Below, one piece after another: positions 27,637 to 53,737 of a stretch of DNA of 64,000 nucleotides; positions within the stretch are counted from its first letter, which is position 1, and each line of letters starts with the position of its first letter. Made by a program: the position numbers and the translations under genes. The stretch covers positions 68,699 through 132,698 of the forward strand of contig DATIYM010000020.1 in the NCBI GenBank assembly GCA_035517615.1, read 5' to 3'. Source of the stretch: Gemmatimonadales bacterium (GTDB taxonomy: Bacteria; Gemmatimonadota; Gemmatimonadetes; Gemmatimonadales; GWC2-71-9). The notes beneath the pieces are model-generated. The model did no database searches. It had not been told where the DNA came from and was given only the letters and a program-made list of their open reading frames with translations.

Positions 27637-28179
27637 TTACCTCGTCGGCTCGACTCGCAAGCTATCGTTGAATCGATTGAAGTATTCCGTCATGCCGATC
27701 ACGAGCGTGATCTCGACGATCTGCCCGTCGTCCCACGCGCTCCGCAGTCTCGCGAACAGCTCATCCGTCACGTCGTGGCCGGAATGATGCACGACGTCGG
27801 CATACTCGAGTGCGGTACGCCATCCGGGCTCGAGCGCTTGCAGCGCATCCGCCTCGCCCCGATCCTGAATGGCGTCGAGCAGCTCCGCGCTTGCTCCTTT
27901 CCGTCCTGCCAGGACAGTGTGCGAATTCAGTCAGTAGCGGCAGTGGTTGACGTGCGAGAGCCGTACCCACAGCAGCTCCTTCAGCAGTGCGGGGACGGTC
28001 CCTTCATTCATCACGGTGCGGAAATGCGCGATCATCGTTTGCAGGTGGAGCGGCCGGATCGCCACCGTGCGAAACATGTTGGGGACGTTCCCCCTCTCTC
28101 TGAGATACGTCTCAAAGATGGGCCTGACGTCTTCCGGGGCCGCATCGGGGGCGAGGGGCGGGATTCGGGGTGCGTTCAT
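27637..28179 (-). CDS. Carboxymuconolactone decarboxylase / AhpD-family protein with in-frame TGA in the CxxC motif (predicted selenocysteine, C-R-Y-U, U83)
   Basis: Listed ORF 27931..28251 ends ...LSHVNHCRY at TGA 27931-27933. The same frame continues for 97 codons to TAA 27637-27639, reading LNSHTVLAGRKG...WRTALEYADVV...VTDELFARLRSAWDDGQIVEITLVIGMTEYFNRFNDSL, the normal C-terminal half of the CMD/AhpD fold. The result is the family motif CxxCxxxH with U at the second Cys. Start set at ATG 28179 (GGAG upstream); ATG 28251 is also possible. Confidence 0.75.
27901..27917 (-). promoter_or_regulatory. Candidate bacterial SECIS hairpin
   Basis: Minus strand, 13 nt after the UGA: CUGUCCU-GGC-AGGACGG (7 bp including one G-U pair). 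The G-rich apical loop lies about 21-23 nt from the UGA. Confidence 0.45.
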
Positions 28180-28369
28180 GGGCTGTGGCTCCGCGGGGTT
28201 CGCGACTGGGGGTGCCTGGCGCATTATCGTGAGGCGGGGGAGAGCCGTCAAACGGGCTGCAGAACGCGCGGGCCGCCGTATTCTGCGGTAGAAAACGTCC
28301 CATCCTGAACGGCTTTGCTACGCGTTTCAGGGCTGGCCCGCGCTTTGCCTTTCAGGAGGTCGCATCGTT

Positions 28370-28457
28370 CTCCGTCCAGGGCAAACCACGGGTGACCGTG
28401 GGACGCAAAGCCACAGGGTCTCGACGCAATCCGTTGAGACAGCCTAGCCGCCGGGAG
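28370..28457 (+). promoter_or_regulatory. c-di-GMP-I (GEMM-I) riboswitch aptamer candidate in the pilin leader
   Basis: CAGGGCAAACC (28377-87). A perfect 6-bp hairpin CCACGG-GUGA-CCGUGG with a GNRA tetraloop (28386-28401). GGGACGCAAAGCC (28400-12). A 9-bp P3-like hairpin GUCUCGACG-CAAUC-CGUUGAGAC (28418-40). A closing CUCCG / CGG(G)AG P1. This closely parallels my recollection of the V. cholerae Vc2 aptamer: CAGGGCAAACC..GAAA..GGGACGCAAAGCC. Confidence 0.6.
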
Positions 28458-28499
28458 TCGGATCGAAGCGGGCAGTCCGCTTCGGCCCAACACGCTCTC

Positions 28500-28538
28500 A
28501 CGCCCTGCTGAATGGGGCGGAGGGCGTTTGCGTTTTCC
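28500..28538 (+). terminator. Terminator-like expression platform between the aptamer and the pilin RBS
   Basis: ACGCCCU (28500-06) pairs with AGGGCGU (28521-27) and is followed by UUGCGUUUUCC. An alternative partner GGGCG lies at 28515-19. AAGGAGG sits 5 nt before ATG 28562. Confidence 0.45.
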
Positions 28539-28561
28539 TACACTCACTCAAGGAGGAACGC

Positions 28562-28981
28562 ATGTTGGGTCGTCGCGGCTTCACACTCATCGAGCTGCTC
28601 ATCGTGGTGGTCATCATCGGCATTCTCGCCGCCATCGCGATCCCGAAATTCGCCAACACGAAGGAAAAGGCGTACATCGCCTCGATGAAGTCCGACCTTC
28701 GGAACCTGGTTACCGCCGAAGAGGCCTATTTCGCCGACTCAGTGAAGTACTCGACCCAGGTGTCCTGCGCCAATCCGCCCGCCGCGGGTAAGGTGGCGTT
28801 CTGCACGACGACCGGAAACACGCTGGGCACGCCGACGGTGGGCACGGGCACGCAGGCGGGGTGGACGGCGAGCATCACGAACCTCAACACCACGAAGAGC
28901 TGCGCGATCTACGTGGGGGCAGTGACCCCCGCGGCCCCGGGGCAAACTACCGATCCGGAGGGCGCGCCGGTCTGCCGATAA
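28562..28981 (+). CDS. pilA: Type IV pilin (prepilin-type N-terminal cleavage/methylation domain)
   Basis: MLGRRG|FTLIELLIVVVIIGILAAIAIPKF is the class III signal, followed by a hydrophobic alpha-1 helix. 139 aa. Confidence 0.9.
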   Translation: MLGRRGFTLIELLIVVVIIGILAAIAIPKFANTKEKAYIASMKSDLRNLVTAEEAYFADSVKYSTQVSCANPPAAGKVAFCTTTGNTLGTPTVGTGTQAGWTASITNLNTTKSCAIYVGAVTPAAPGQTTDPEGAPVCR

Positions 28982-29008: not shown

Positions 29009-29044
29009 TCGAGCGGCGGCCGGTTCGGCGCCGCTCGACGTTTT
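29009..29044 (+). terminator. Intrinsic terminator after pilA
   Basis: tcgagcggcg(g)cc / ggcgccgctcga: a 12-bp GC-rich stem with one bulge and a 5-nt loop, followed by cgtttt. Confidence 0.7.
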
Positions 29045-29062
29045 ATCCCTTACATTCTTGCC

Positions 29063-30583: not shown

Positions 30584-31039
30584 ATGCGAATCACCACCTG
30601 GGGTGAATACGGCCTGATCGTCTCCGTGAGCCTGGCACGGCGGGCGGGAGAAGGTCCGGTCGCCGCTCGGGAGTTGGCTGAGCAGGAGCGGCTGCCCCAT
30701 GATTACGTCGAACAGATCCTGCTGCGCCTGCGGCGTGCGGGTCTGGTGGAGTCGGTTCGGGGAGCCAAGGGCGGCTACCAGCTCGCCCGCTCGCCCGAGC
30801 ATGTCACCGTCAAAGACGTCATTTCCGCCTCAGAGCACGTCACCTTCGAAGTCAACTGCGACGCCCATCCTGTCGACCCGCACCGATGTAGCCGGGACGC
30901 GTCGTGCAGCATCCGGCCGGTGTGGCGGATGCTCGAACAGCGTGTCAACGAGCTGCTGTCGAGCATTTCGCTCGCCGACCTGACGACGCACGACGAGCCG
31001 ACCGTCTATCAGATTACTGGAGTAATGGTCGGGAACTAG
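30584..31039 (+). CDS. Rrf2-family transcriptional regulator (IscR/CymR-like, three clustered Cys)
   Basis: MRITTWGEYGLIVSVSLA...LVESVRGAKGGYQLAR winged helix-turn-helix. A C-x9-C-x6-C cluster (CDAHPVDPHRCSRDASC). Confidence 0.85.
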   Translation: MRITTWGEYGLIVSVSLARRAGEGPVAARELAEQERLPHDYVEQILLRLRRAGLVESVRGAKGGYQLARSPEHVTVKDVISASEHVTFEVNCDAHPVDPHRCSRDASCSIRPVWRMLEQRVNELLSSISLADLTTHDEPTVYQITGVMVGN

Positions 31040-31071
31040 CCTCACTACAACATCGTTTTTTTTCTGATCCC

Positions 31072-31096
31072 AAACCCGACTGGCGACGTCGGGTTT
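31072..31096 (+). terminator. Hairpin between the Rrf2 gene and the rhodanese gene (terminator or attenuator candidate)
   Basis: aaacccgac (31072-80) pairs with gtcgggttt (31088-96) around a 7-nt loop. A T8 run lies 8 nt upstream (31056-63). Confidence 0.4.
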
Positions 31097-31128
31097 CGAT
31101 CTCGTATTTGGATCACAGGGGAGACACT

Positions 31129-31980
31129 ATGGTGGACTACGCGCATCCGGAGGTGCTGGTCTCGACAGCATGGGTCGGCGAGCATCTCCATGATCCCGAC
31201 ATCCGGCTGATCGAAGTCGATGTCGACACGACGGCATACGATTCGGGCCACATCGAGGGAGCGGTGGGCTGGAACTGGCAGTCACAGCTCAACGACCGGC
31301 TGCGGCGCGACATTCCCGACGCGCGCGCATTTGCGGACCTACTGAGCGCGGCTGGAGTGACGCCGAAGACTGCGGTCGTGCTGTACGGAGACAACAACAA
31401 CTGGTTCGCCGCGTTCGCATTCTGGCTGCTGCAGCTGTACGGCCACAAGCGCGTGCGGCTGATGAACGGTGGACGCGCGAAGTGGGTTGCCGAGCAGCGC
31501 GCGCTCGTCACCGCGCCAGCCAACGTAGCGCGCACGAACTATCCCGCGCCAAAGCGGGCCAACACCGCGCTGCGCGCCAAGCGCCCGGATATCGAGCGGG
31601 CGCTGCGCGGCAAGTCGATCGGTCTCGTGGATGTGCGTTCGCCCGCCGAATTCGTGGGCGATATCGTTGCTCCGCCAGGAATGACCGAAACCGCACAACG
31701 CGCGGGCCACATTCCCGGCGCGCACAACGTGCCCTGGGCTCAGGCGGTGGCTCCCGATGGCACATTCAAACCGCGCGAAGAGTTGGAGCGCTTGTATCGT
31801 CAGGCGGGCGTGCTCGACCGTGACGAGGTCATCGCGTACTGCCGCATCGGCGAACGCTCGAGCCACACGTGGTTCGCGCTCAAATACCTGCTCGGCGTGG
31901 ACAAGGTCCGAAATTATGATGGCTCGTGGACCGAGTGGGGCAATCTGATCGGGGCGCCAATTGTGAAGGGGAGCGAGTGA
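31129..31980 (+). CDS. sseA: Two-domain rhodanese, thiosulfate/3-mercaptopyruvate sulfurtransferase (SseA-like)
   Basis: Start moved to ATG 31129 (GGGGAG upstream). HIEGAVGWNW, HIPGAHNVPW and the active-site loop CRIGERSS. Confidence 0.85.
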   Translation: MVDYAHPEVLVSTAWVGEHLHDPDIRLIEVDVDTTAYDSGHIEGAVGWNWQSQLNDRLRRDIPDARAFADLLSAAGVTPKTAVVLYGDNNNWFAAFAFWLLQLYGHKRVRLMNGGRAKWVAEQRALVTAPANVARTNYPAPKRANTALRAKRPDIERALRGKSIGLVDVRSPAEFVGDIVAPPGMTETAQRAGHIPGAHNVPWAQAVAPDGTFKPREELERLYRQAGVLDRDEVIAYCRIGERSSHTWFALKYLLGVDKVRNYDGSWTEWGNLIGAPIVKGSE

Positions 31981-32930
31981 AAACGGCGGCGGATCGGCGG
32001 ACCGGCGGACCGGCGGTCCGTGGAGACTTCATCGAGCCGATATTGTGGAGTCTTGTTGGGAACACGCCGTTGCTCCCGCTCGATCCGCCGATCCGCCCAT
32101 CCGCCGGTCCGCCCGTCTTTCTCAAGGCCGAGTGGTTCAATCCGGGCGGCAGCGTCAAGGATCGGCCGGCCCTGTTCATTTTGCGTGATGGAGTGGCGCG
32201 ACGCGCGCTGCCGGGAAAGCGCCTGCTCGATGCCACGAGCGGGAATACCGGCATCGCGTACGCGATGCTCGGAGCCGCGGCCGGCATTGGCGTGACGCTG
32301 TGTGTGCCGGCAAACGCCAGCGTTGAGCGCAAGGTGCTGCTCGAGGCCTACGGCGCCGACGTCATCTACACCGATCCACTCGAGGGGACGGATGGCGCGA
32401 TCCGCCGCGCGCAGTCGCTTGCGGCCGCGGAGCCCGACCGCTACTGGTACGCCGACCAGTACAACAATCCCGCGAACCCGGAAGCGCACGCGATCACCAC
32501 CGCTCAGGAGATCTGGCGTCAGACCGAAGGCCGCGTCACGCGGCTCGTCGCCGGACTGGGCACGACCGGAACGCTCATGGGAACGGGTCGGCGGCTGCGC
32601 GAGCTGAGCCCGAACATCGAGTTGGTCGCGGTCCAGCCCGAGGGGCCGTTTCACGGGCTCGAAGGTCTCAAGCATCTGGCTACCGCCATCGTCCCCGGCA
32701 TCTACAATCCCTCGATTCCCGACCGCACGGAGTTCGTCGCCACCGAGGCTGCCGAAGCCATGGTGCGCCGACTGGCGCGTGAGGCCGGGCTATTTGTGGG
32801 CTGGTCAGCCGGTGCCGCCGTGGTCGCGGCCGAGCGGCTTCCGGGCTCCGCGCTGACCGTCGTGATTGCCCCCGATTCGGGCATGCGCTACCTGAGCGAG
32901 CGCGAGCGGGTCGAGGGCACCGCGCTATGA
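31977..32930 (+). CDS. cysM: PLP-dependent cysteine synthase, CysM-like (thiocarboxylate-dependent candidate)
   Basis: The GTGA start overlaps the sseA stop. LVGNTPLL, NPGGSVKDRPA (PLP lysine), ATSGNTGIAYA. Confidence 0.85.
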   Translation: MKTAADRRTGGPAVRGDFIEPILWSLVGNTPLLPLDPPIRPSAGPPVFLKAEWFNPGGSVKDRPALFILRDGVARRALPGKRLLDATSGNTGIAYAMLGAAAGIGVTLCVPANASVERKVLLEAYGADVIYTDPLEGTDGAIRRAQSLAAAEPDRYWYADQYNNPANPEAHAITTAQEIWRQTEGRVTRLVAGLGTTGTLMGTGRRLRELSPNIELVAVQPEGPFHGLEGLKHLATAIVPGIYNPSIPDRTEFVATEAAEAMVRRLAREAGLFVGWSAGAAVVAAERLPGSALTVVIAPDSGMRYLSERERVEGTAL

Positions 32931-33379
32931 CGCTGTTCCTGGACGCGAACTTCGTCGCGGCAATTCGCCGCCAGGGCGAAGCGGACTATCCACGAGAGAC
33001 CTGTGGCCTGATGGCGGGATCAAAGCGAGGCGAGAGCACGCGCGTGACGCGTCTCGTTCCCGTGACCAACACCCGGACCGATTCGGCGCACAATCGCTAT
33101 CTTATCGACCCAGAAGAATACCGGCGGGCGCAGATCGAGCTCGACGCCGCGGGTCTCGAGATCGTCGGTATCTATCATTCGCACCCCGACCACCCGGCGC
33201 AGCCATCCGAGTTCGATCGGGAACATGCGCTGCCGTGGTGGAGCTATGTGATTGTGAGAGTCGCGGCGGGACATGCGCAGGAGGTTCGCAGTTGGCGACT
33301 CGTGGACGATCGTTCGATGTTTCAAGAGGAATCCATAACGCAAGACGAACGGAAGGTTGCATGGCAGTCACCGTCCTGA
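32927..33379 (+). CDS. mec: JAMM/MPN+ metallopeptidase (Mec-like)
   Basis: ETCGLMAG plus the HSHPDHPAQPSEFD JAMM motif (E...HxHx7Sx2D). ATGA overlap with cysM. Confidence 0.85.
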   Translation: MTLFLDANFVAAIRRQGEADYPRETCGLMAGSKRGESTRVTRLVPVTNTRTDSAHNRYLIDPEEYRRAQIELDAAGLEIVGIYHSHPDHPAQPSEFDREHALPWWSYVIVRVAAGHAQEVRSWRLVDDRSMFQEESITQDERKVAWQSPS

Positions 33380-34877: not shown

Positions 34878-34963
<86 letters not shown>

Positions 34964-34978
34964 CGAAGGGAACGGGAA

Positions 34979-35008
34979 AAGATAGACGGCGGTATAACTG
35001 CAAGTCAA
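34979..35008 (-). promoter_or_regulatory. Sigma-70-like promoter candidate for tRNA-Leu
   Basis: Minus strand: TTGACT (35008-35003), 18-nt spacer, TATCTT (34984-34979). It lies about 15 nt upstream of the tRNA 5' end. Confidence 0.4.
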
Positions 35009-35016
35009 CTATTGGC

Positions 35017-35045
35017 TTGACCACCTCCTGGCGGGTTTCTATCTT
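35017..35045 (+). promoter_or_regulatory. Sigma-70-like promoter candidate for smpB
   Basis: TTGACC (35017-22), 17-nt spacer, TATCTT (35040-45). This would leave only a very short leader before GTG 35058. Confidence 0.35.
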
Positions 35046-35057
35046 GCCGATCTCTCG

Positions 35058-35516
35058 GTGGACAAGCTCTCCATAGCCCGGAATCCGCGGGCGCGACACG
35101 ACTATCATCTCCTGGAAACCTGGGAGGCCGGCCTCGTCCTCACGGGCACGGAAGTGAAATCGCTGCGTGATCGGAAGGCGAGTCTGGGCGAGGCGTACGC
35201 GCACGTCCAGAACGGAGAAGTCTGGCTCGAGGGCATGACGATCTCCCCGTACGGACCGGGTAGCTATAACAACCCTCCCCCGGCACGCTCGCGCAAGTTG
35301 TTGCTGCACAAACGCGAGATCCGCAAACTGATCGGGGGAACGACGCAACGGGGTCTGACACTGGTCCCGCTCGAGCTGTACTTCAAGGATGGAGTAGCGA
35401 AAGTGGCCATCGCGCTCGCCCGCGCCAAGAAGGTTCACGATAAGCGCGACGAGTTGAAGCGTCGCGCGATCGATCGCGAGCTGGCGCGCGCGTTTCGCAA
35501 CCGGGGCAAATCGTGA
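35058..35516 (+). CDS. smpB: SsrA-binding protein
   Basis: IARNPRARHDYHLLETWEAGLVLTGTEVKSLR...LLLHKREIRKL are typical SmpB motifs. Confidence 0.9.
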   Translation: MDKLSIARNPRARHDYHLLETWEAGLVLTGTEVKSLRDRKASLGEAYAHVQNGEVWLEGMTISPYGPGSYNNPPPARSRKLLLHKREIRKLIGGTTQRGLTLVPLELYFKDGVAKVAIALARAKKVHDKRDELKRRAIDRELARAFRNRGKS

Positions 35517-51378: not shown

Positions 51379-52385
51379 GCCGGATTCGTCTGGGCGTGGT
51401 CGGGGCGGGCGCGTGGGGGCGGAATCATGTGCGCACGGTGGCGGCGCTGGCGGAGGCTGAGCTTGCCGGCGTGTGCGACACCGATGCGAAAGTCCGGGAA
51501 CGCGTGGCGCGGGCGTACCCGGGAGTGTTCGTCACGAGCGAGTTGCCGGCGCTGCTCGAGCGGGTTGACGGCGTCGTGATTGCCTCGCCGGCCACGACCC
51601 ATGCTAGCGTGGCGCTCGCGTGTATCGCGCACGGCACGCCGTGCCTGGTCGAGAAGCCATTCGCGCTCTCGGCCGCCGATGCGGCACGCGTGGCGCGCGA
51701 GGCTGCGGCGCAGCATACGCCCGTTGTGGCGGGCCACTTACTCCTGTTTCATCCGGCGATCGAGCGGCTGCGTTCATTGCTCGACGCGGGCGAGCTTGGT
51801 AAGATCTTTTACCTGTACGGGTTACGGGTTAACCTCGGCCAGGTTCGGGCCGACGAAAATGCGCTGTGGAGCTTCGGTCCGCACGATGTGTCTGTGGCAC
51901 TCTACTTGCTCGGCGAGACTCCAGTCCGGGTAGCCGCGCAAGGCCGAGGCTATCTCCAGCCCAAGGTCGAAGACGTCGTCTTCGTCACTATGGATTTTGC
52001 GAGCGGTGTGCTGGGCCAAATGCAGCTATCGTGGCTCGACCCGCACAAGGAGCGAAAACTCACCGTGGTTGGGGCGCGCAAGATGGTCGTGTTCGACGAC
52101 ATGGAGGCGCGGGAAAAGCTGCGCATCTATGATAAGGGCGTGGACCGGCCGCCCGAGTACCGTTCCTACGGTGAAAGCCTCGCGATTCGCGAAGGTGACA
52201 TTTTCATCCCCAAGATTCCCAATGTCGAGCCGCTCGCGGCGGAGCTGGCGCATTTCGTCCGAGTGGTCCAGCGCGCGGAGCCGCCCCGGCCCGGCGCGGC
52301 CGCGGAAGACGCCGTGCACGTCGTGCGGGTGCTCGAAGCCGCGACGCGTTCGCTTGCACGCGGAGGAGTTCCAGAGGCCGTATGA
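51375..52385 (+). CDS. wbpB: Gfo/Idh/MocA-family oxidoreductase, WbpB-like
   Basis: IRLGVVGAGAWGRNHVR Rossmann motif and CLVEKPFA. Sits between the wbpE-like and wbpA-like genes. Confidence 0.75.
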   Translation: MSRIRLGVVGAGAWGRNHVRTVAALAEAELAGVCDTDAKVRERVARAYPGVFVTSELPALLERVDGVVIASPATTHASVALACIAHGTPCLVEKPFALSAADAARVAREAAAQHTPVVAGHLLLFHPAIERLRSLLDAGELGKIFYLYGLRVNLGQVRADENALWSFGPHDVSVALYLLGETPVRVAAQGRGYLQPKVEDVVFVTMDFASGVLGQMQLSWLDPHKERKLTVVGARKMVVFDDMEAREKLRIYDKGVDRPPEYRSYGESLAIREGDIFIPKIPNVEPLAAELAHFVRVVQRAEPPRPGAAAEDAVHVVRVLEAATRSLARGGVPEAV

Positions 52386-53737
52386 GTTCTGCTTCTGCCC
52401 CCGCAGTGATGGCACAGTCCCCGAGTGATGTGTTGCTCACGAAAGCTCACGATCATACGGCGCTGATCGGGATTGTCGGGCTGGGCTACGTGGGACTTCC
52501 GCTGGCGATGGAGTTTGCGCGCGCCGGATTTCGCGTGCTCGGATTCGACGTGAGTACCCGGGTGGTCGACGGCCTCAACGCCGGGCGCTCGCACGTCCAG
52601 GACGTTCCGTCGGCCGACCTCGCGCGCTGGACCAGCGCGCGGCAATTCACCGCCACCACGGACCTGCTGCGTCTGAAAGAGCCGGACGTCGTATCGATCT
52701 GCGTTCCCACGCCGCTCTCCAAGACCAAGGACCCGGACGTCAGCTACGTGCTCGCGGCAACCGAGTCCGTCAAGCAGACGCTCCGGCGCGGCCAGCTGAT
52801 CGCACTCGAATCGACCACGTACCCGGGGACGACACGGGAACTGATGCTGCCCGCGCTCGAGAGCACCGGTCTCAAGGTGGGAGTCGATTTCTTCCTCGCG
52901 TTTTCGCCCGAGCGCGTGGATCCCGGCAATCCGAAGTGGAACACGCACAATACCCCCAAGGTCGTGGGCGGCATTACCGAGGCGTGCCGCCGCGTGGCCA
53001 TGGCGGTCTACCAGCCGGCCATCGAGCGCCTCGTCCCCGTCTCGTCCACGGAGGCCGCGGAGCTCGTCAAGATTCTCGAGAACACGTTCCGCTCGGTGAA
53101 TATCGGGCTCGTCAATGAGATGGCGATCGTGTGCGACAAGCTCGGCGTGAACGTGTGGGAAGTCATCGACGCGGCCGCCACGAAGCCGTTCGGGTTCATG
53201 AAGTTCACGCCGGGTCCGGGCGTGGGCGGTCACTGCATTCCGCTGGATCCGCATTACCTCGCGTGGAAGATGCGGACCCTGAACTACCGCACCCGCTTCA
53301 TCGAGCTCGCGGGCGAGATCAACGCCGCGATGCCGGAGTACTGGGTCGGACGCGTGGTGGACCACCTGAACGAGCACGGCAAAGCCGCGCGCGGCAGCCG
53401 CGTGCTCGTGTTGGGCGTCGCCTACAAGAAGGATATCGGCGATATCCGCGAGAGCCCCGCGCTCGACGTGGTGCGGCTCTTGGAACGCCGCGGCGCCGTG
53501 GTCTCCTACCACGACCCCCACGTCGCCGTCCTCAAGGAAGAGGATATCGACCTCAAGTCCGTGCCGTTGAACGCGCAGACGCTCGAGGCCGTGGATTGCG
53601 TGATCATCGTGACTGATCACGCGGGAGTGGATTACGGTCTCGTGGCCCGACACGCGAAGGTCGTGGTCGACACGCGGAATGCGCTCCCGCGTTCGCGCCG
53701 GGATGGCGGCGCCGACGGCGGAGGAACGAGCGCGTGA
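52382..53737 (+). CDS. wbpA: UDP-N-acetyl-D-hexosamine 6-dehydrogenase (WbpA/WecC-like nucleotide-sugar dehydrogenase)
   Basis: IGIVGLGYVGLPLAMEFA. GVGGHCIPLDP catalytic Cys. LGVAYKKDIGDIRESPA. Confidence 0.85.
   Translation: MSSASAPAVMAQSPSDVLLTKAHDHTALIGIVGLGYVGLPLAMEFARAGFRVLGFDVSTRVVDGLNAGRSHVQDVPSADLARWTSARQFTATTDLLRLKEPDVVSICVPTPLSKTKDPDVSYVLAATESVKQTLRRGQLIALESTTYPGTTRELMLPALESTGLKVGVDFFLAFSPERVDPGNPKWNTHNTPKVVGGITEACRRVAMAVYQPAIERLVPVSSTEAAELVKILENTFRSVNIGLVNEMAIVCDKLGVNVWEVIDAAATKPFGFMKFTPGPGVGGHCIPLDPHYLAWKMRTLNYRTRFIELAGEINAAMPEYWVGRVVDHLNEHGKAARGSRVLVLGVAYKKDIGDIRESPALDVVRLLERRGAVVSYHDPHVAVLKEEDIDLKSVPLNAQTLEAVDCVIIVTDHAGVDYGLVARHAKVVVDTRNALPRSRRDGGADGGGTSA

Follow-up and report, generated by a model that had tools for sequence, protein, structure and literature searches.

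Whether the expression of a type IV pilin is tied directly to the second messenger cyclic dimeric guanosine monophosphate (c-di-GMP), and in which direction such a control would operate, is the question raised by the leader of an orphan pilin gene (28562-28981, plus strand; 139 amino acids) in a 64-kb stretch of DNA, the window, from a host described as an uncultured, high-GC, Gemmatimonadales-like soil lineage of the Gemmatimonadota. To our knowledge, almost nothing is known about surface behaviour and second-messenger control in this phylum. An initial annotation of the locus had proposed a c-di-GMP-I (GEMM-I) riboswitch that controls the pilin gene by transcription attenuation and had given no direction of switching. 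The analysis reported here argues that a genuine GEMM-I aptamer (28370-28456, plus strand), recognized by its Rfam match, by residue mapping and by covariation, very likely resides within the pilin transcript, and the modelled folds favour, with a probability of about 0.6, that c-di-GMP turns the gene OFF by termination.

The Rfam model of this class, RF01051, with which a search of the leader had initially been proposed, matches 28370-28455 (plus strand) at 52.2 bits, above its gathering score of 35. The match spans model positions 1-87 of 87, is not truncated and has E = 2.5e-7 for a scope of 64 kb, both strands and 4227 families; it is the sole match of the RF01051 type in the window. All hallmarks listed in the initial annotation could be located, that is the aptamer segments CAGGGCAAACC (28377-87) and GGGACGCAAAGCC (28400-12), the P2 hairpin CCACGG-GUGA-CCGUGG (28386-91 with 28396-401, GUGA tetraloop 28392-95), the GUCUCGACG/CGUUGAGAC hairpin (28418-40) and, further downstream, the hairpin at 28465-83, the AAGGAGG motif and the ATG. 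Covariance model alignments show the helices P1, P2 and P3 around a three-way junction, with P3 formed by 28409-25 and 28433-49, a two-base-pair helix by 28381-82 and 28405-06, and the canonical P1 (28371-74 with 28452-55), preceded by an unpaired G-C, displayed in the alignment to RF03167, the model of the c-di-GMP-I-GGC variant. The minimum free energy (MFE) fold reproduces P2, P3 and a P1.

The residues that define the ligand can be read from the same alignments. G28380, A28407 and C28451 are the equivalents of G20, A47 and C92 in the numbering of Vc2, in whose structure A47 intercalates between the two ligand guanines. G20 reads one ligand guanine, C92 forms a Watson-Crick pair with the other guanine and A47 is a contact residue (PMC6140456; PMC4744006). 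Equally, the interhelical C-G pair that is universally conserved in GEMM-I (C44-G83 in Vc2; PMC4744006) has its equivalent in C28404 of the GACGC segment and G28442 of the AG bulge within P3, whereby the mapping of G83 to G28442 rests on our own alignment to Vc2. Relatives of the GEMM-Ib type that sense cyclic GMP-AMP (cGAMP) have an A at position 20 (PMC6140456), which is G28380 in the window. The GGC-variant model RF03167, searched with permissive thresholds, gives the window aptamer 56.5 bits, under its gathering score of 59; the consensus of this variant, judged from the Rfam model, reads GACGCGAA versus GACGCAAA in the window, where position 47 is A28407 and not the G of the variant. The window aptamer resembles the RF03167 sublineage in shape and retains the parental binding site, and its contact residues correspond to the c-di-GMP set and not to the cGAMP or GGC-variant sets, in agreement with the specificity initially proposed. 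The ligand is accordingly likely to be c-di-GMP.

A covariance model built from four Gemmatimonadota aptamers was searched against 169 sources totalling about 660 kb (168 pilin loci plus the window), and recovered five distinct aptamers, those of the window and of the loci L178, L105, L057 and L102. Orthologous pilin leaders could not be used for covariation because the aptamer is missing from them, and the five aptamers, which come from different genes, were used in their place. Among the five, 80.7% of the cells are paired in the named structure versus 28-41% when the partners are slid by one to three columns, changes on both sides occur in 11 pairs and five out of six P2 pairs are compensatory. 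Given the small number of sequences and the model-fitted alignment, this covariation is supportive of the structure and not decisive. The L178 aptamer scores 63.2 bits against RF03167, yet reads GACGCAAA; the platform that follows it differs from that of the window in being shorter and without a U-tract. At L105, a c-di-GMP-I aptamer (875-976; 46.4 bits on RF01051) is located directly downstream of the major-pilin gene and precedes GspH/FimT-like and PilV-like minor pilins. The c-di-GMP-I aptamer of L057 (3196-3301; 64.3 bits on RF01051), also directly downstream of a major-pilin gene, precedes a secreted DUF882/Peptidase_M15_2 protein with its ATG 7-11 nt past the aptamer. The GEMM-I-like aptamer of L102 (2600-2700; 46.8 bits against our own four-aptamer model), from a clade neighbouring that of the window, follows a tandem pair of pilin genes at a distance of about 275 nt and precedes a signal-peptide open reading frame (ORF; ATG at 2780) without Pfam match; it reads GACGCAGAG, and its equivalent of position 20 is an A (CAGA-GC-AAAG), as is characteristic of the GEMM-Ib aptamers that sense cGAMP.

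The downstream ORF, initially taken for a pilin, matches PF07963 (N_methyl, E = 1.8e-8) and shows the short basic leader ending in G (MLGRRG) and the hydrophobic N-terminal methylation motif (FTLIELLIVVVIIGILAAIAIPKF, with F-T-L-I-E in FTLIELL) that identify a type IV, IVa-like, prepilin. Thousands of homologues exist in Gemmatimonadota metagenome bins, many of them annotated PilA; 61 columns including four Cys are invariant among 26 of the homologues, and next to one paralogue a histidine kinase and a sigma54 activator, together PilS/PilR-like, are encoded. The gene possesses its own 3' terminator (29009-29049, plus strand), a GC-rich hairpin followed by CGUUUUAUCCC that amounts to about -24 kcal/mol with the tail CGUUUUAU, and therefore constitutes a monocistronic unit.

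The most likely transcription start of this unit lies near 28360, just 5' of the aptamer and 6-10 nt ahead of the P1 5' strand, as predicted from the usual geometry of sigma54 promoters and a sigma54-type -24/-12 element, TGGCCC-GCGCT-TTGCC (TGGCCCGCGCTTTGCC), at 28334-28349 (plus strand). Leaders of riboswitch-less paralogues share GGCA(C/T)-N5-TTGC about 60 nt ahead of the ATG, and a sigma54-type motif is found by regular expression at 49 of 223 distinct pilin starts, a 12.7-fold enrichment over background in this clade. A weight matrix derived from 48 paralogous pilin promoter sites, with the window left out, scores 21.0 bits at 28334-49, which equals the training median and tops all plus-strand sites in the 64 kb (runner-up 11.5). 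No other matrix score above 0 occurs within 28200-28600, including the segment between aptamer and ATG, and no sigma70-like plus-strand site was found in that segment; TGGGGC...TTTGCG at 28513-31 was rejected as a sigma54 promoter for its wrong spacing. A start downstream of 28457, considered in the initial annotation, is made unlikely by the promoter at 28334-49 and the lack of promoter-like sites from aptamer to ATG. From the motif to the GFTLIE codons, the distance is 72-138 nt in 48 paralogues versus 243 nt in the window-type leader, which by such promoter-to-gene distances is about 140-150 nt longer than the leaders of the paralogues. Judged only from these distances, aptamer and platform look as if inserted between promoter and ribosome-binding site (RBS); an alignment with the closest riboswitch-less leader (L176) showed no convincing homology blocks upstream of the Shine-Dalgarno (SD) sequence that could delimit the insertion.

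Two further observations concern the promoter motifs. At a distance of 20-170 nt upstream of the paralogues' sigma54 motifs, an enrichment is seen for the 7-mers TTGCAAA and TTGCAGA (14 and 13 of 48), the window has CTGCAGAAC at 28257-28265, about 70 nt upstream of the -24 element, and 7-mers of this type may represent a candidate PilR-like activator site. The sole other TGGC-N7-TTGC match in the window, TGGCACTCTACTTGC (51895-51909, plus strand), is located about 490 nt upstream of a gene of the UDP-glucose/GDP-mannose dehydrogenase family (52382-53737) and is outside the top five matrix matches.

Between aptamer and start codon, the leader contains the elements of an expression platform, all on the plus strand. 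The 5' leader together with the P1 5' strand (28360-28377) acts in the folds as a switching strand, which either builds P1 and its extension by pairing with 28452-28471 or pairs with the terminator 3' arm at 28515-28532. The P1 3' strand CGGGAGU (28452-28458) has an alternative partner in the terminator 5' arm (28494-99) in prefix folds 28500-28560, with a pair probability of 0.59-0.91 for RNA ends 28527-28542. It is followed by a stable hairpin (28460-28487; -17.8 kcal/mol, z = -3.3) with the core GAAGCGG/CCGCUUC at 28465-83, which is nested inside the antiterminator described below and of which alternatively the 5' half extends P1 and the 3' half pairs with the start-codon region; the duplex of 28475-91 with 28563-80 has -23.6 kcal/mol versus -23.8 for the hairpin's own arms (28460-74 with 28475-91). 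The terminator-like stem ACGCUCUC(A)CGCCCU / GGGGCGGAGGGCGU (-24.9 kcal/mol, z = -4.1; 0 of 200 shuffles equally stable) precedes an interrupted U-tract, UUUGCGUUUU (28527-36), and resembles with this tract the pilin gene's own 3' terminator. Stem and U-tract had initially been assigned to 28500-28538; both are present, while the extent of the stem differs, comprising 14 base pairs with one bulge at 28492-28527. The bulged A28500 is the reason why a simple terminator scan missed it. The SD sequence AAGGAGG (28550-56; ATG at 28562) lies in an RBS-covering hairpin, UGCGUUUUCCU with AAGGAGG(A)ACGCA (28529-28562; -11.1 kcal/mol, z = -2.4), and in the full-length MFE fold and in long transcripts a helix of 28483-91 with 28564-72 closes over the start codon.

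Folding of successive transcript prefixes from 28360 provides a view on how these elements compete. Up to about 28488, the MFE structure is the aptamer including P1. For prefixes 28500-28560, it is an antiterminator in which the terminator 5' arm (28494-99) is captured by the P1 3' strand (28453-58), and the P1 5' strand and its flanking bases (28361-82) engage both 28502-06 and the terminator 3' arm (28515-32). At the decision length of 28536, this antiterminator has -85.2 kcal/mol, the best terminator fold -81.8 and the canonical aptamer plus terminator -78.0, with antiterminator pair probabilities of 0.62-0.96. The attenuation platform with an alternative pairing partner, as originally suggested, thus takes shape in the models as an antiterminator that uses both P1 strands and is the MFE structure while the terminator is transcribed. 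Holo-like and apo-like folds differ by about 0 +/- 2 kcal/mol up to 28488 and by 4-10 kcal/mol afterwards, when the terminator arms emerge; binding of a ligand with pM-nM affinity could supply enough energy to reverse a difference of this size. The best duplex between the 5' strand and the platform has -26.7 kcal/mol, found in 0 of 2000 platform dinucleotide shuffles and in 0.15% of strand shuffles, and its 12 contiguous base pairs (28366-77 with 28515-26; -21.0 kcal/mol) are equalled by 9.4e-5 of 14-nt windows in the 64 kb. A high G+C content by itself does not account for this complementarity.

A prediction of the direction of switching can be made from which structures coexist. In a cotranscriptional study of two GEMM switches, coexistence of aptamer and terminator, both in competition with an antiterminator, marks the OFF-switch Cd1 and mutual exclusion marks the ON-switch pilM (PMC9262584). 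The full-length MFE fold of the window leader holds aptamer and terminator together, and with this Cd1-like coexistence c-di-GMP is predicted to cause termination. As long as the RNA ends between 28455 and about 28494, the aptamer could fold and bind c-di-GMP via G28380, A28407 and C28451. Without ligand, P1 would open, 28453-58 would pair with 28494-99 and 28361-82 with 28502-32, no terminator would form and the polymerase would continue into the pilin gene. Ligand binding would lock P1 and its extension (28360-74 with 28452-71), the terminator arms would pair (28492-28527 plus U-tract) and transcription would end near 28533-38. In transcripts that escape termination in the ligand-bound fold, 28475-91 would be freed to pair over the start codon. 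The AUG and first codons are unpaired with a probability of 0.51-0.53 in the antiterminator fold versus 0.19-0.30 in the aptamer fold, and start-codon occlusion is predicted as a secondary effect on translation. High c-di-GMP would in consequence mean pilin OFF.

The arrangement has a restricted distribution. Twelve contigs, drawn from several soil assemblies, hold the identical pilin and leader. No aptamer occurs in the leaders of pilins with 96% (L176), 90% (L167, L170, L177), 86% (L173) and 78-81% (L007, L087-L091) identity, and in these aptamer-less leaders the sigma54 motif keeps its usual spacing. L178, with a 92% identical pilin, is the one relative whose pilin leader has a GEMM-I aptamer. 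From these comparisons, the association of the aptamer with Gemmatimonadota pilus loci is recurrent but sporadic, and the arrangement in the window is lineage-specific, apparently gained in one pilin paralogue. In strain L004, which is 2.5% diverged, 0 differences occur over the 479 nt of 28334-28812 with about 12 expected, six occur in the 82 nt just upstream (28252-28333), and beyond 28812 the density is normal. The variant-free tract starts exactly at the -24 element and ends in the middle of the pilin gene.

Several findings weigh against an OFF-switch of this kind or weaken single pillars of it. The full-length OFF fold is the MFE structure even without ligand (-110.0 versus -99.4 kcal/mol), and the regulation must therefore be kinetic; at the same time the direction derives from nearest-neighbour folding, which ignores tertiary contacts and kinetics. 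The helix between P1 3' strand and terminator 5' arm is weak by itself, with -9.8 kcal/mol equalled by 49% of windows, and the SD is hairpinned in both states (unpaired 0.29 in the antiterminator and 0.25 in the aptamer fold). The L178 leader, the only other pilin leader with aptamer, has no U-tract terminator and its folds lean weakly to ON; these competing folds are almost equal in energy and vary with the 5' end that is assumed, so that they lend the direction no comparative support. With respect to the aptamer, the columns of the 11-nt tetraloop receptor in P3 (CUAA / UAU) are deleted, which creates a continuous P3 helix. The P2 tetraloop GUGA is of the GNRA type and may or may not dock into this P3. 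GEMM members with GYRA loops commonly lack the 11-nt receptor, and GUGA loops can dock on CU:AG helix steps, which P3 contains. With respect to the promoter, TGGC-N7-TTGC occurs in the window at chance level (2 found versus 2.2 expected); the promoter is called from its score on the matrix of the paralogues and from its position, not from motif enrichment in the window. Finally, the variant-free tract of strain L004 also takes in 250 nt of coding sequence including synonymous sites, and may equally reflect constraint or recent recombination or gene conversion among pilin paralogues.

These points give room to other explanations. That the same riboswitch works as an ON-switch, with c-di-GMP favouring read-through or translation of the pilin as in pilA1 and pilM, would agree with the behaviour of the known pilus-associated cyclic-dinucleotide riboswitches (PMC4744006; PMC9262584) and with the L178 leader, in which the P1 5' strand can pair with the SD and the SD is more open with the aptamer enforced (0.50 versus 0.30-0.34). 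In the window, however, aptamer and terminator are compatible and stand together in the MFE fold, the only strong competitor of the terminator requires both P1 strands, and no fold was found in which the folded aptamer blocks the terminator, so that an ON-switch is considered unlikely here. A mainly translational control, in which 28492-28527 is a structural module and the ligand exposes or buries the start codon through the exchange of hairpin 28460-87 against the 28475-91/28563-80 duplex, can draw on the near-equal energies of the two duplexes (-23.8 and -23.6 kcal/mol), on the more open AUG and first codons in the antiterminator fold, on the interruption of the U-tract and on L178 and L057, which lack a terminator and have start codons close to the aptamer. 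Such a control is judged quite unlikely, as the stem with U-tract resembles the terminator at the 3' end of the pilin gene, the highly non-random complementarity targets the terminator 3' arm and not the SD, and SD accessibility barely differs between the states.

The identity of the ligand and the role of the aptamer can be questioned as well. A ligand other than c-di-GMP, for instance 3'3'-cGAMP or that recognized by the GGC variant, might be suspected from the slightly higher score on RF03167 than on RF01051 (56.5 versus 52.2 bits), from a P3 without 11-nt receptor as in the GGC sublineage and from the A at position 20 in the neighbouring-clade aptamer L102. With a score below the gathering threshold of 59, an A and not the variant's G at position 47, a retained C92 and a G at position 20 in place of the A of cGAMP binders (PMC6140456), this seems highly improbable. 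Equally, the aptamer might be a relic or lie outside the pilin mRNA without regulation of the gene, as the nearest pilin paralogues manage without it. A full-length model match with every contact residue intact, a promoter immediately upstream and none downstream, the non-random complementarity to the platform, and 0 changes in the 2.5%-diverged strain versus six in the 82 nt just upstream make a loss of function exceedingly doubtful. An aptamer that responds to c-di-GMP by termination is the explanation retained in the following.

The surroundings of the gene in the window are otherwise housekeeping, with a proton pyrophosphatase, transporters, a 2-oxoacid dehydrogenase complex, thioredoxin reductase, a fumarase-class lyase, an Rrf2-rhodanese-PALP-JAB cluster, smpB, pyrD/pyrF, rpsD-rpoA, carB, secA and sugar-nucleotide enzymes. 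A search of the wider context found neither pilus machinery nor GGDEF/EAL genes within the 64-kb window. A CMD-family gene is divergent from the pilin gene, and the non-coding gap between them, initially given as 380 nt, measures 310 nt (28252-28561) by the mechanical ORF and, at 382 nt, comes close to this figure when the start of the neighbouring gene is put at 28179, the choice of gene callers. A sigma70-like promoter facing the CMD gene (TTGACG-17 nt-GATAAT, 28223-28251, minus strand; 10 of 12 matches) fits the start at 28179 and not the mechanical ORF start at 28251. This CMD/AhpD-family gene (PF02627; 27637-28251, minus strand) is interrupted by a single in-frame TGA at 27931-27933, which sits within H-C-R-Y-TGA-L-N-S-H, that is CxxU versus the CxxC of the family, and a 7-bp hairpin begins 16 nt past the TGA. 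Compared with a diverged strain, 17 of 21 differences fall on codon position 3 of a single read-through frame, as do all five between the TGA and the next possible start, and the gene probably encodes a selenoprotein which gene callers divide into ORFs of 82 and 51 amino acids. Elsewhere in the window, the clustered genes for the Rrf2 regulator, rhodanese, PALP enzyme and JAB/MPN protein (30584-33379, plus strand) look like a cysteine pathway of the sulfur-carrier type, and an 84-nt class II tRNA (47.9 bits, minus strand) is located just ahead of smpB (region 34880-35516).

The element belongs to a well-known riboswitch class, GEMM-type switches before pilus genes have already been documented, and the knowledge of the class itself is left unchanged by it. 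What is added here are the ligand triad, the exclusion of cGAMP and GGC types, the sigma54 promoter, the extent of the terminator, the P1-based antiterminator and the lineage-specific gain. In an uncultured soil lineage of the Gemmatimonadota, the element would place one pilin paralogue under the direct influence of c-di-GMP, and the locus would layer two controls, initiation that depends on sigma54 and an enhancer, and attenuation by the riboswitch. Closely related paralogues, some having the switch and others lacking it, represent a natural experiment on riboswitch gain. A more far-reaching and tentative proposal is that a ready-made c-di-GMP OFF module of about 140-150 nt, composed of aptamer, hairpin and terminator arm, has been recruited between the sigma54 pilin promoter and the RBS in one of many near-identical paralogues and, with a 'double capture' antiterminator, silences one alternative pilin at high c-di-GMP; if true, it would show gene-by-gene gain of a riboswitch within a paralogue family, with a logic opposite to that of the known pilus riboswitches.

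Among the known systems, the structural reference of GEMM-I, Vc2 of Vibrio cholerae, shares with the window the equivalents of G20, A47, C92 and C44-G83, the P1/P2/P3 architecture and a GNRA tetraloop on P2, whereas the window has GUGA versus GAAA in the tetraloop and a continuous P3 with the receptor columns deleted. The GGC variant (RF03167; 56.5 bits for the window, under the gathering score of 59, and 63.2 bits for L178) resembles the window in overall P3 shape and junction sequence and differs from window and L178 by its consensus GACGCGAA versus GACGCAAA. The closest parallel in logic is Cd1 in front of the flgB flagellar operon of Clostridioides difficile, a transcriptional OFF-switch of the same aptamer class that also controls a surface motility organelle and in which aptamer and terminator coexist and compete with an antiterminator that needs aptamer strands (PMC9262584). 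In contrast to Cd1, the target in the window is a pilin and not flagella, the promoter is of the sigma54 type, the host is a high-GC member of the Gemmatimonadota, both P1 strands each capture one terminator arm, the GUGA tetraloop is without 11-nt receptor, and the switching is a prediction from folds. The pilA1 leader of C. difficile (c-di-GMP-II) and the pilM leader of Geobacter (GEMM-Ib, cGAMP) are, like the window element, located directly upstream of type IV pilus genes (PMC4744006; PMC9262584). Unlike the window element, pilA1 belongs to an unrelated aptamer class and is an ON-switch, and pilM, equally an ON-switch, reads cGAMP through A20 where the window has a class I aptamer with G20, and the OFF logic predicted for this pilin would be the reverse of that in Clostridioides and Geobacter, whose pilus switches turn ON.

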